From: Tistrella mobilis
Lineage (GTDB): Bacteria > Pseudomonadota > Alphaproteobacteria > Tistrellales > Tistrellaceae
Direction of reading: 5' to 3'
Assembly (NCBI RefSeq): GCF_039634785.1
Contig: NZ_JBBIAB010000003.1
Coordinates: forward strand, 13,724 to 77,723
Length of the DNA stretch: 64,000 bases
Both the position numbers and the translations under genes were made by a program. Shown here in pieces: positions 40,302 to 46,700 of the stretch. Each line of letters opens with the position of its first letter. Position 1 is the first letter of the stretch. The notes beneath the pieces were generated by a model that saw nothing but the letters and a program-made list of their open reading frames with translations, was not told where the DNA came from and searched no databases.

Positions 40302-43300
40302 ATGACCGCGCCACATTTCATCGCACATCAAAACATCTGGCTGGATGAACGGCTGAATACCGGACCGGGCTCATATCACATCGGTGGATATGTTGAACTC
40401 CGTGGTCCTCTGGATATCGATATCTTCGGCGCGGCACTGAAGGCGGTGGCGGTTGCACATGCCGGCCTGCATATGCAACCGGTGCCCGAAGGAGACGGTT
40501 TTCGTCTTCTCACATACCAAGACACCTTCTCGTCACCTGTCAGCGTCGATCTGTCGCAGGAGGAAAATCCTGTGGCAGCTGCGAACGCATGGATGGCGGC
40601 GGATTTCCGCCGGATATTTCCGGCCGGCGCCCCCCTGTTCAGGTGGGGGTTGATACGCCTCGCAGCCGACCGCCATTTCTGGACCAAGACCTATCATCAT
40701 CTGATCGTCGACGGCCACGCGATCTCCCGGATCGTGCAGGATGCCGCACATGCATACACCTCGCTGCTCGCCGGCCGCGACCCGGGCCTCGCCGGCAGCG
40801 ATCCGCTGGCGATCGGGGATCCGCTTGCAGGCGACGGCGTGTCGGCGCGCCGCCACTGGTCGACGGTTCTGGCAGCGGCCCCGCCGGTGCTCAACCCGGT
40901 ACCGCCCCTGCCGCCCCCGCATTTCGGCCCACCGGATTTCGGCCCACCGGATCTCGCCCCGCCCGAGCCCGACGTGCCGGGCCGGCGAACCCGGATCGGG
41001 CTGGAGCGCCGGGTCTATGACGGCCTCGCCCGGCTTGCCGCAGAGGCCGGCGCCGGCCTGCCGCAGCTGCTTCTGGTGCTGGCCTCCGCCGCCCTGCTCC
41101 GCCGGGCGGGGCGGGATGCCCTGGTCGCCGGCCTGCCGGTCGCCAACCGGCCGACCGCCGCTCACAAGGCTGCCGTCGGCCTGTTCGCCACCATGCAGCC
41201 GGCCATCGTTGCGATCGATGCGACCGACCGCCCGCTCGATGTCGCGGCCGCTCTGGCCCGCAGGATGCGCAGCGCCTATCGCCATCGCAGCATCGCCTTT
41301 GCCGAACAGGCGGCGATGCTGGCGGCGGTGCGTGGCCGGGGCACGCCCGCTTTCGATCTCACCCTGTCTTTCGAGCCGCACGACTACGATGCCCGCTTCG
41401 GCCCGGCGACGGCGACCGCCCATACCCTCTCCACCGGACGAGAGCCGCATCCGCTCTCGATCTTCGTGCGCGACTATCACGACGGCGCCGCCGTCACCGT
41501 CGATCTGGACTGGCGCAGCGACGTTTTCGCCGCCGACGACATCCCGGCCCTGATCGCCCGTTTCGACCGACTCTGCCATCGGCTCCTCGACCAGCCTGAA
41601 GCCAGCCTCGGCCGGCTCGACCGGCCGGACGCCGAAACCCTCGCCCGGCTCGGCCGGCTGGGCCGCGGCCGGCCGCCACGACCGGGCGATCTCGCACCGC
41701 TCGCCGATGCGATCGCGGCCCAGGCCGCCGCCACGCCCGCGGCCCTTGCGGTGGTCGATGCCGCGACCGGGGATCGGGTGGACTATCAGGGCCTCGTCGC
41801 CCGCGCCGGCCGCCGCGCGGCCGCCCTTCAGCGCGCCGGTGCCGGCCCCGAAAGCGTGATCGGCCTTGCCCATCCTTCGGGAATCGAGACCGTGGTCTCG
41901 CGGCTCGCGGTCTCGATGGCAGGCGCCGCCTGGCTGCCGCTCGATCCCGAGGATCCCCCTGCCCGCCAGGCGGCGATGCGCGATCAGGCCCGCCCCCTGC
42001 TGGTGCTGGACGACCAGTCGGCCCGCGCCCTCGACCTGACCGTTGCCGCCGATGCCCGGCCGGCAGCACGGCCGGTTGATCCCGAACAGCTCGCCTATCT
42101 GCTGTTCACCTCGGGCTCGACCGGCACGCCCAAGCCGGTCGCCGTGCCGCACCGGGCCCTGGCCATGCACATGGCCTGGATGGGCCGGCGCTATCCGCTC
42201 GGCCCCGACGACGTCGTCCTGCAGAAGACCCCGGCCGGTTTCGACGCCTCGATCTGGGAGTTTCTGGCGCCGCTGATGGCCGGCGCGCGGCTGGTGCTGG
42301 CGCCGGCCGGCAGCCATCGCGACCCTGAGATGATCGGGCGCCTTTGCGCAGATTACGGTGCCACCATCCTGCAGGCCACGCCGACCCTGATCGACGCGCT
42401 GGCCGCGAGCGGGGCGCTCGCCCGTGCCAGCCGGCTGCGCCGCCTGTTCGCGGGCGGCGAGATCCTGGGCCCCGCGACCATCGCCGCCGCCCGGGCGGCC
42501 CTGCCCGCCGATGCCGCCCTGATCAATCTCTACGGCCCCACGGAATGCTGTATCGACGCCTCGGCCGCCGACATCCCGGCGGATCTGCAGGGGGCGGCGC
42601 CGCTGGGTGATCCGGTCGACGGCGCCAGCCTGCAGGTGATCGATGCCGCGGGCGACCCGGTCGGCCCGGGGGTCGCCGGTGAACTCGCCATCGGCGGCCT
42701 CGCCGTCGGCCGTGGCTATCACGGCGATCCGGTGCGCACCGCGCTCGCCTTCCGCCCCGACCCCGAGGCGGAGATGCCGGGCGCCCGCCGCTATCTGACC
42801 GGCGATCGCGTCCGCCGCACGGAACGGGATGCCCTGCTGGCGCTGGGCCGGATCGACGGCCAGATCAAACTGGGCGGCCGGCGGATCGAGCCGGGCGAGA
42901 TCGAAGCCGCGCTGATGGCCCATCCCGCCATCGCCCAGGCGGGCGCAGCCCTGCTGCCGGCGACCGACGGCGCCGCTCCCCGGCTGGGCGCCTGCATCGT
43001 GCTCCGCCCCGGCCATCCTGCCCCGGCCCCCGACGAGTTGCGCCGCCATCTGGCGGCCCGCCTGCCCGCCGTGCTCCACCCCGCGGTCGTCACCACCGCC
43101 GATCGCCTGCCGCTGTCGCGTTCCGGCAAGCTCGACCGCCGGGCCCTTGGCCAGGCGATGGCCGGAGAGGCACCGGCCACCGCCGCCCGCGCCCGCCTCG
43201 ACGGCCCGCTTCAGGCCGAAATCGCCGCGATCTGGGCAGAAGTGCTCGACCTGCCGATGCCCGGATCCGGCGCGGATTTCTTCGCCCTCGGCGGCCATTC

Positions 43301-46300: not shown

Positions 46301-46700
46301 CGCGGCCGACCGCCCCGCCGGCGGCGATGCCCCGGCCAGCCCGGTCGAGATCCTGATTGCGGACATCTGGGCCGAGGTGCTGGACCGGCCGGCCATCGCG
46401 CGCAGCGACGACTTCTTCGCCCTCGGCGGCCACTCGCTCAAGGCCGTGCGCATGCTCGCCCGGCTGAACGAGGCGCTGCCGGTGGAGGTGCCGCTGCGCA
46501 CCGTGTTCGAGAACCCGACCGTGGCGACGCTTGCCGCCGCCCTCGACGCCCTGACCGATGCGGCACTGGCCGGAGATGACGATCTCGCCGCCCTGCTGGC
46601 CGAAATCGAGGCACTCCCCGAGACGGATGGGCCCGAGACAGATGGGCCCGGGACAGATGGGCCCGAGGCCGAAACCTTTCCGGATACCGCCGCCCAATGA
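40302..46700 (+). CDS. Non-ribosomal peptide synthetase, two modules: C(starter)-A-T-C-A-T
   Basis: C1 HHLIVDGHA (40696-40722). A1 core LAYLLFTSGSTGTPKPV, FDASIWEF, NLYGPTECCID, GRIDGQIKLGGRRIEPGEIE, SGKLDRRAL. T1 FFALGGHSLKAM. C2 HHIAGDGWS (43881-43907). A2 with the same motifs. T2 FFALGGHSLKAV. The long opposite-strand ORF (40533-46697) translates to low-complexity sequence and is an artefact. Confidence 0.95.
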   Translation: MTAPHFIAHQNIWLDERLNTGPGSYHIGGYVELRGPLDIDIFGAALKAVAVAHAGLHMQPVPEGDGFRLLTYQDTFSSPVSVDLSQEENPVAAANAWMAADFRRIFPAGAPLFRWGLIRLAADRHFWTKTYHHLIVDGHAISRIVQDAAHAYTSLLAGRDPGLAGSDPLAIGDPLAGDGVSARRHWSTVLAAAPPVLNPVPPLPPPHFGPPDFGPPDLAPPEPDVPGRRTRIGLERRVYDGLARLAAEAGAGLPQLLLVLASAALLRRAGRDALVAGLPVANRPTAAHKAAVGLFATMQPAIVAIDATDRPLDVAAALARRMRSAYRHRSIAFAEQAAMLAAVRGRGTPAFDLTLSFEPHDYDARFGPATATAHTLSTGREPHPLSIFVRDYHDGAAVTVDLDWRSDVFAADDIPALIARFDRLCHRLLDQPEASLGRLDRPDAETLARLGRLGRGRPPRPGDLAPLADAIAAQAAATPAALAVVDAATGDRVDYQGLVARAGRRAAALQRAGAGPESVIGLAHPSGIETVVSRLAVSMAGAAWLPLDPEDPPARQAAMRDQARPLLVLDDQSARALDLTVAADARPAARPVDPEQLAYLLFTSGSTGTPKPVAVPHRALAMHMAWMGRRYPLGPDDVVLQKTPAGFDASIWEFLAPLMAGARLVLAPAGSHRDPEMIGRLCADYGATILQATPTLIDALAASGALARASRLRRLFAGGEILGPATIAAARAALPADAALINLYGPTECCIDASAADIPADLQGAAPLGDPVDGASLQVIDAAGDPVGPGVAGELAIGGLAVGRGYHGDPVRTALAFRPDPEAEMPGARRYLTGDRVRRTERDALLALGRIDGQIKLGGRRIEPGEIEAALMAHPAIAQAGAALLPATDGAAPRLGACIVLRPGHPAPAPDELRRHLAARLPAVLHPAVVTTADRLPLSRSGKLDRRALGQAMAGEAPATAARARLDGPLQAEIAAIWAEVLDLPMPGSGADFFALGGHSLKAMQVATRLRAVFDVEIGLEELFDHPRLDDLAALVAARRRDAPAAPGPVLDILPVPAGSLRPLSFAQERIWFLAQWPDGAVAYNMAMAVRIDGPLDVAAFAEAAAVLPDRHPMLRTCFAAPDGVPLQRVDPEARLVLATRDLRDLDPATRDAAVTEAAARDAATPFDLTRAPLLRLTLLRLADDAHVLLVNLHHIAGDGWSGQIVLEELTALYAARIGAGPDLPPAPALTYADVADWQRRRLNEAEARRQLDHWRGVLTDPPVLDLPTDRPRPPVVSSDGGCLVRDLPADLPDDLRRLAAAAGGTPFMVMTALFGLLLGRMAGQDEVVIGTPVTNRPDRRLEDLVGFFTNTLPLRLDLRGADLPALLSRTRATCLAAFDHPDLPFERLVDAFAPERSLAHTPLFQVMLAWQLAGASRLELPGLAVSRLAPAFTAAKFDLMLSVEDSGRSMSWRFDYRAELFEPRTIALIADRLTALIRAAARHPAARLPELFEAPVPTVPASPAPASDVVDVILARLDADPGRIALVDAATGISLTAAELAARARRRAAGLVAAGIGPDRIVALAHPRGAELVVSMLAVAIAGGAWLALDEDEPEARRALILATAAPDLVLDADGAARIDAAAGDHPLPAGARHPDRLAYLLFTSGSTGTPKPVAVPHRALARHMAWMNRSFPLDAADAVLQKTPTGFDASVWEFQAPLMTGARLVLAPSGSHRAPETLGRLLDAHGITILQATPTLVDALAATDALARGRRLRRLFIGGEALGTPTIRAARATLPAGCAVINLYGPTECCIDATAWVADDLPQDLPQTGTAPLGAAIDGVHLMVLDRTGRPVPPGLPGELAIGGETVGRGYHGDPVRTALAFRPDPAAPRPGARCYLTGDRVLVDARGRLRYQGRIDAQMKLRGQRIEPGEIEAVLSAHPAIARAGVTVVSAESGETLVAWLTCHPGQALPAADVLRRHVARHLPIHMIPARFVATDSLPLTASGKLDRRALTARPLPAADRPAGGDAPASPVEILIADIWAEVLDRPAIARSDDFFALGGHSLKAVRMLARLNEALPVEVPLRTVFENPTVATLAAALDALTDAALAGDDDLAALLAEIEALPETDGPETDGPGTDGPEAETFPDTAAQ
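46620..46664 (+). repeat. Three tandem 15-bp repeats (GAGACGGATGGGCCC, GAGACAGATGGGCCC, GGGACAGATGGGCCC) encoding (E/G)TDGP x3 in the C-terminal tail of the first NRPS
   Basis: Direct reading of 46620-46664. The repeats are in-frame, within the last 25 codons of the gene. Confidence 0.8.

Follow-up and report, generated by a model that had tools for sequence, protein, structure and literature searches.

Didemnin biosynthesis and prodrug leaders

The marine bacterium Tistrella mobilis produces didemnins through an anticancer-drug pathway. Deletion of didA abolishes all didemnins, and purified DidA incubated with Escherichia coli FadD, 3-hydroxydecanoic acid, ATP and L-Gln forms an N-acyl-triglutamine and, at larger scale, also an N-acyl-tetraglutamine; both of its adenylation (A) domains prefer Gln (PMC10811503). 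Didemnins X and Y, the N-acyl-(Gln)3/4 esters of didemnin B, are themselves products of the assembly line, and iterative use of the DidA modules has been proposed (PMC10811503; PMC5577590). A CAAX-like membrane hydrolase, DidK, cuts the didemnin X/Y ester during export (PMC10811503), and a Gln-Gln-Pyr segment has been assigned in the literature to didA-didB. Here we compare these descriptions with one gene (positions 40302 to 46700, hereafter gene 1) in a stretch of 64,000 nucleotides of T. mobilis (assembly GCF_039634785.1, contig NZ_JBBIAB010000003.1, positions 13,724 to 77,723; “the window” denotes this whole stretch), for which an original prediction made from the letters of the DNA had described a lipo-initiating synthetase with two Gln modules.

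The closest mechanistic analogues of DidA are the N-acyl-D-Asn prodrug modules (XcnA/ClbN type) of xenocoumacin, colibactin, amicoumacin and zwittermicin. As described in PMC10811503, these too use a module with a starter condensation (C) domain to make an N-acyl-amino-acid leader, and the product stays a prodrug until it meets a membrane hydrolase at export. Their leaders consist of a single D-Asn held by an amide bond and removed by a ClbP/XcnG peptidase, whereas the DidA leader carries three or four L-Gln from two presumably iterated modules, is joined as an ester to lactate, and is removed by DidK.

To identify gene 1, its protein was compared with DidA of T. mobilis L17, available as the codon-optimised didA sequence printed in the supplement of PMC10811503 and damaged by optical character recognition (OCR). 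After tblastn alignments had broken into fragments at OCR frameshifts, coverage by exact 6-mers taken from three reading frames was used instead; these covered 1498 of residues 1-1523 of gene 1 (98.4%), and the native start MTAPHF is common to both proteins. On the strength of this coverage and the shared start, gene 1 is almost certainly DidA, which primes the didemnin (did) nonribosomal peptide synthetase-polyketide synthase (NRPS-PKS) line. It shares with DidA of strains L17, KA081020-065 and JCM21370 the same protein, a C-A(Gln)-T-C-A(Gln)-T layout (T, carrier domain), the genes that follow and the genus; the few residues at which it differs from L17 DidA may in part be OCR errors in the printed sequence. 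The window MnmA protein is 97% identical to that of T. mobilis and 85% identical to that of T. bauzanensis, and the exact DidA protein is also encoded on contig JBHUNG010000010.1 of assembly GCA_042685245.1. The locus is thus the known did cluster and not a new one, a point that the original prediction had missed. In this genome didC and didD form one gene, a fusion reported for JCM21370, unlike the arrangement in KA081020-065.

Several points weigh against this identification. The comparison with published DidA spans residues 1-1523 of 2132 only, and its reference is both OCR-damaged and codon-optimised; searches of large protein and genome collections turned up no close relatives of DidA; the window stops inside didC-didD, before the PKS modules, the terminal thioesterase (TE) and didK; and the mechanism by which DidA iterates is only posited in the literature.

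Housekeeping genes (mnmA, secDF, Fe-S assembly genes and a TctABC transporter; 17153-18304, 28067-30403 and neighbours) lie within 10-25 kb of didA, and the did cluster therefore looks chromosomal here rather than plasmid-borne. A chromosomal did cluster has been reported for T. mobilis L17 (PMC10811503).

Starter-type condensation domain of DidA

Feature coordinates are collected in Table 1. An in-frame TGA at 40290-40292, 9 nt 5′ of the didA ATG, means that no earlier start is possible, and the gene on the 5′ side (a resistance-nodulation-division [RND] membrane-fusion gene, 38828-40030, minus strand) is transcribed divergently across a 270-bp spacer with one weak sigma-70-like match. GC content at third codon positions (0.85) was typical for real genes in the window. 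Pfam models matched the protein as two each of Condensation, AMP-binding, AMP-binding_C and PP-binding (E values of about 1e-25 to 1e-134), and their order gives C-A-T-C-A-T. DidA thus opens directly with a C domain and has no A-T unit ahead of it, as had been claimed from the DNA sequence, and the HHLIVDGHA motif placed about 130 amino acids (aa) into the protein was located at aa 132-140. The syntenic Comamonadaceae locus described below repeats this arrangement.

Table 1. Features of didA and of the two genes that follow it, in window coordinates
Feature	Coordinates	Strand	Basis or description
didA open reading frame	40302..46700	+	ATG 40302 to stop 46700; 2132 aa; bimodular NRPS, Cs-A(Gln)-T-C(LCL)-A(Gln)-T
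Starter condensation domain C1, aa 1-445	40302..41636	+	PDB ranking, neighbour-joining clade, single-domain homologues
HHLIVDG catalytic motif of C1, aa 132-138	40695-40715	+	Motif position
Pro-rich loop within C1, about aa 193-227	40878..40982	+	Pairwise alignment
A domain 1 (A1), about aa 473-955	41718..43166	+	Pfam AMP-binding 473-807; code DAWQFGLIDK (predicted Gln)
Carrier (T) domain 1, about aa 975-1040	43224..43421	+	GGHSL at aa 997-1001; Pfam PP-binding
Condensation domain 2 (C2), aa 1063-1491	43488..44774	+	LCL type; HHIAGDG at aa 1194; Pfam, PDB, neighbour-joining tree
A domain 2 (A2), about aa 1515-1988	44844..46265	+	Code DAWQFGLIDK (predicted Gln); 62% identical to A1
Carrier (T) domain 2, aa 2019-2081	46356..46544	+	Pfam PP-binding
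Acidic C-terminal tail of DidA	46557..46697	+	Sequence; putative docking role
didB (gene 2)	46697..52105	+	C, pseudo-Asub, keto-acid A, KR, T; predicted lactate module
Fused didC-didD (gene 3)	52102..64000, runs off window	+	GTG start; 5185 aa in source contig

When C1 (aa 1-445) was compared with all PDB sequences, the best match was RzmA-Cs (7C1H/K/P; 97 bits, E = 8e-27), the starter condensation domain of rhizomide biosynthesis (PMC7804268), followed at lower scores by EntF (80 bits), Txo1 (65 bits) and CDA-C1 (48 bits). Similarity to RzmA-Cs was low and confined to two local alignments (about aa 8-162 and 251-426). The second condensation domain, used as a control (C2, aa 1057-1496), matched instead the LCL-type domains of Txo2, Txo1, TycC and FscG at 210-296 bits, with RzmA-Cs and CDA-C1 reaching only about 60 bits.

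A HMMER scan of 1.84 billion representative proteins returned none more than about 37% identical to C1, a word-indexed protein search gave only two distant matches and no self match, and a first scan of genome contigs found no relatives. A second contig scan, based on an alignment of two sequences, recovered only a Comamonadaceae metagenome-assembled genome (MAG) and more distant relatives (<30% identity) in, among others, Chromobacterium and Beggiatoa-like bacteria. Ranking of the HMMER returns by summed score was uninformative and was replaced by local rescoring of each domain. N-terminal C domains then accounted for 26 of the 30 best single-domain matches to C1, with the internal C domains of the matching proteins scoring far lower. 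The best single-domain relative belonged to the Comamonadaceae MAG (P0070, 2092 aa; contig JAAFIW010000012.1, loci L002/L003).

A neighbour-joining (NJ) tree of 70 C and epimerization (E) domains (100 bootstraps) was built from RzmA-Cs and a partial CDA-C1 (both extracted from PDB alignments as printed), 20 N-terminal homologues together with the internal C domains (post-T and post-E) of the same proteins, all C domains of the window and an E-domain outgroup. DidA C1 grouped with RzmA-Cs, CDA-C1 and all N-terminal domains, in a clade that was exactly monophyletic in 94 of 100 bootstraps and free of LCL or DCL members in 98 of 100; C2 fell in the LCL clade. These rankings and groupings support assignment of DidA C1 to the starter-type (Cs) condensation domains. 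The tree, a subtype phylogeny of the kind proposed with the original prediction, therefore places C1 with starter domains and not with LCL domains, and the call of a lipo-initiating starter domain is borne out by the RzmA-Cs match, by the 94/100 clade and by the published in vitro acylation by DidA. It is also worth noting that internal starter-like C domains, each following an ordinary C domain (T-C-Cs-A-T), occur in the unrelated NRPSs P0003 (3208-4064 and 4696-5552), P0012 (1072-1930) and P0020 (9-886), and that these copies fell in the starter clade of the tree.

The rank of EntF as second-best solved relative of C1 (80 bits), and the alignment of the NCBIfam EntF and MxcG models over the first module, would suit an EntF/VibH-like capping domain that takes an aryl or other acid, and not a fatty acyl group, from a free-standing carrier. 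However, RzmA-Cs outscores EntF for C1, and for the Comamonadaceae orthologue EntF (59 bits) ranks below both RzmA-Cs (99 bits) and CDA-C1 (78 bits). Neither EntE/EntB/EntC-like genes nor free-standing carrier genes were found in the window from 1 to 40300, no such partner genes lie upstream in the syntenic MAG locus, and in vitro acylation with 3-hydroxydecanoyl-CoA has been published (PMC10811503). Aryl capping by C1 was consequently rejected, given the missing partner genes in 1-40300 and the rank of RzmA-Cs above EntF, and we regard it as extremely improbable.

A starter domain of this kind would resemble RzmA-Cs (PDB 7C1H) and CDA-C1 (PDB 4JN3) in subtype and in using an acyl thioester to N-acylate the first amino acid. 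RzmA uses acetyl-CoA and its pocket is plugged by Arg148, and changes of either kind (at Arg148 or at Gln36) favoured longer chains (PMC7804268). The RzmA gate residues Q36/Y138/R148 map to G29/Y131/I141 of DidA, which thus has Ile in place of the Arg plug, Gly at the Q36 position and, as a further difference from RzmA-Cs, an inserted Pro-rich loop. From the first two changes we infer that the DidA pocket fits a medium-chain C10 hydroxy-acyl donor rather than acetyl. Located between the C1 lobes, the Pro-rich loop (PPLPPPHFGPPDFGPPDLAPPEPDVPG) falls in the region across which the PDB alignment to RzmA-Cs breaks; it is also present in published L17 DidA, and about 15 of its residues (FGPPDLAPPEPDVPG) are missing from the Comamonadaceae homologue in pairwise alignment.

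N-terminal C domains are found on downstream subunits of multi-protein NRPSs as well, and the window does not reach as far as the end of the cluster; C1 could on these grounds receive a peptidyl chain from a synthetase encoded elsewhere, or be an inactive relic. Against such a non-initiating role, C1 sits in the starter clade and not with LCL or DCL domains, its HHxxxDG motif is intact (HHLIVDG) and kept in the Comamonadaceae orthologue (HHLVVDG), and DidA alone yields acyl-polyGln in vitro (PMC10811503). In addition, the DidA N-terminus lacks a docking extension, unlike DidB, with ~55 extra residues before its C domain, and DidC/D, with a TubC_N dock. We rejected a non-co-linear or inactive C1 on the basis of the starter clade, the intact motif and the in vitro reconstitution, and there is hardly any chance that it is correct.

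At the other end of the protein, LAALLAEIEAL is followed by the acidic near-repeats PETDG PETDG PGTDG PEAE. The LAALLAEIE core is kept in the Comamonadaceae homologue, and the tail is probably a docking element toward DidB; together with the N-terminal extensions of the partner proteins, it fits a docking order of DidA to DidB to DidC/D.

Glutamine modules and length of the leader

To read the specificity codes, all A domains of the window were aligned with MAFFT to the GrsA reference (PDB 1AMU sequence over residues 1-541, with residue 2 set to the 1AMU residue). Both A1 and A2 carry DAWQFGLIDK at GrsA positions 235/236/239/278/299/301/322/330/331/517; assignment of Q to position 278 depends on a small gap in the region 283-298, and the MAFFT placement agrees with that of the original prediction. 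The core motifs were regular, with A3 SGSTG at aa 604 and 1646 and SGKLDR aligned to K517 in both domains. The same code had been derived for both domains, Q278 included, from motif strings that are all present in the protein (FDASIWE, ILQATPT, RLFAGGE and NLYGPTECCID in A1; FDASVWE, ILQATPT, LFIGGE and NLYGPTECCID in A2). Its designation as the canonical Gln code also agrees with the literature, where DAWQFGLIDK is listed for Gln in tyrocidine synthetase (PMC2866473, Table 2; PMC8313283, after Rausch 2005). The match of all ten pocket residues to a known Gln code supports the prediction that A1 and A2 activate Gln. The TycC Gln module of tyrocidine synthetase has an identical code but belongs to another organism and pathway, and is used once, inside a longer line.

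The original prediction went on to propose an N-acyl-Gln-Gln product, which holds as the co-linear expectation and as a prefix of the true leader but gives too few Gln: there are three and four in didemnins X and Y, presumably through iteration of the two modules. Strict co-linearity, in which each Gln module acts once and the chain is handed on as exactly N-acyl-Gln-Gln, is the default rule for NRPSs, agrees with a layout in which both modules share one Gln code and a further module is not evident, and was the initial prediction of Xu et al., as recounted in PMC5577590. However, both the three and four Gln of didemnins X and Y and the tri- and tetra-Gln acyl products of purified DidA in vitro (PMC10811503; PMC5577590) contradict it, and single use of each module is very unlikely.

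The route that best explains these findings is as follows; its acyl donor, its tri/tetra-Gln product and the cleavage of the prodrug are taken from the literature. The starter C domain would take a fatty acyl thioester (the published assay used 3-hydroxydecanoyl-CoA) and N-acylate L-Gln loaded on T1 by A1, after which C2 would couple the acyl-Gln to L-Gln on T2. Reuse of the two Gln modules, by stuttering or iteration, would give a chain that leaves DidA with three or four Gln. This chain would move to DidB, whose C domain would esterify it to lactyl-S-T, the lactyl unit arising from pyruvate once the keto-acid A domain has activated it and the ketoreductase (KR) has reduced it. DidC/D and later enzymes would build the remainder of the molecule and, from the released didemnins X/Y, DidK would cleave the ester to give didemnin B and the N-acyl-polyGln leader. 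Within 40 kb 5′ of didA (window 1-40300), neither a dedicated acyl ligase gene nor an acyl carrier protein gene was found, which is consistent with primary metabolism supplying the acyl-CoA donor.

Neighbouring genes and a related Comamonadaceae locus

Downstream of didA, the second gene matches DidB as a predicted pyruvate/lactate module. Its A-KR region had as best PDB match, closest by far, the keto-acid A-KR depsipeptide module of StsA (6ULW, 3e-119), and its A-domain code is DHPAIAETVK (FAAL-like or keto-acid type). Between the C and keto-acid A domains lies a remnant (especially 48173-48850) that aligns to A-domain C-terminal subdomains (Asub); Arg replaces the catalytic A10 Lys in it (EGRPDR), marking it as a pseudo-Asub, and it resembles the “pseudo-Asub” of the StsA module. 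The DidB C domain, presumed to be ester-forming, belongs to none of the LCL, DCL and starter clades of the NJ tree. The third gene encodes TubC_N dock, C, A (DVQFAAQVVK), T, C, A-MT (DAWALGHVVK), T, E, C and A (DFWNIGMVH-) domains up to the window end. The first of these codes is Pro-like, the second belongs to an A domain with an inserted methyltransferase (MT) and the third, cut off by the window end before K517, is Thr-like. The modules fit the Pro-NMe-D-Leu-Thr part of didemnin and, with DidB, would account for Lac-Pro-NMe-D-Leu-Thr.

On the upstream side, four genes at 31275-35449 (minus strand) encode a Band7/SPFH protein, an ABC ATPase, a 70-aa membrane peptide and a DUF697 protein. Between these and didA lies an RND efflux pair (35736-40030, minus strand) comprising a 1030-aa AcrB-like pump and the membrane-fusion protein, and a second RND pair is found at 20326-24735 (plus strand). 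Two plus-strand genes, also upstream of the cluster (30486-31271 and 24689-25600), encode a type II thioesterase and a phosphopantetheinyl transferase of the Sfp type; the thioesterase may be the DidJ/Orf4 of the literature. No CAAX-type hydrolase (DidK) was found in the window from 1 to 40300, and didK presumably lies beyond the window.

The Comamonadaceae MAG carries a didA-like gene of C-A-T-C-A-T layout (L002 10001-16279) whose product is 36% identical to DidA in C1 and about 50% elsewhere. It is accompanied by a DidB-like C-A-KR-T gene (43% identical) and by an NRPS that has a TubC_N dock but differs in its first module. The Band7/SPFH-ABC ATPase-membrane peptide (62-70 aa)-DUF697 genes recur there in the same order at 47-60% identity (L002 6298-9708, minus strand), and we consider them candidates for the export or processing of the lipo-polyGln prodrug. 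The RND efflux pair was not found at the corresponding position of the MAG locus.

Both A domains of the MAG didA-like gene read DAWQFGLIQK, such that code position 331 differs (D to Q) between Tistrella and the MAG in both modules together. Identity between A1 and A2 is 62% in Tistrella and 96% in the MAG, versus 51-53% for cross-genome orthologue pairs. This likeness within each genome suggests that the twin modules evolved in concert or were duplicated independently and, taken with the joint change at position 331, that selection or gene conversion may keep the modules alike. Likeness of twin modules is what an iterating maker of a homopolymer would require.

Rediscovery of didA brings no new biology, because the gene has already been cloned, deleted and reconstituted in vitro; the value of the analysis lies in confirming the earlier motif, specificity-code and starter-C calls and in placing the window in a known cluster. 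Among marine drugs, didemnin B and plitidepsin, which is derived from it, have clinical relevance, and DidA supplies the lipo-polyglutamine leader that makes prodrugs of didemnins. In the MAG the cassette, at 43-60% identity, stands ahead of a different downstream NRPS. Tentatively, and with the balance somewhat against it, the acyl-polyGln leader might be a transferable prodrug/export cassette (DidA-type iterating twin modules, a DidB-type hydroxy-acid ester module and the Band7/ABC/membrane peptide/DUF697 genes) that is not restricted to Tistrella.

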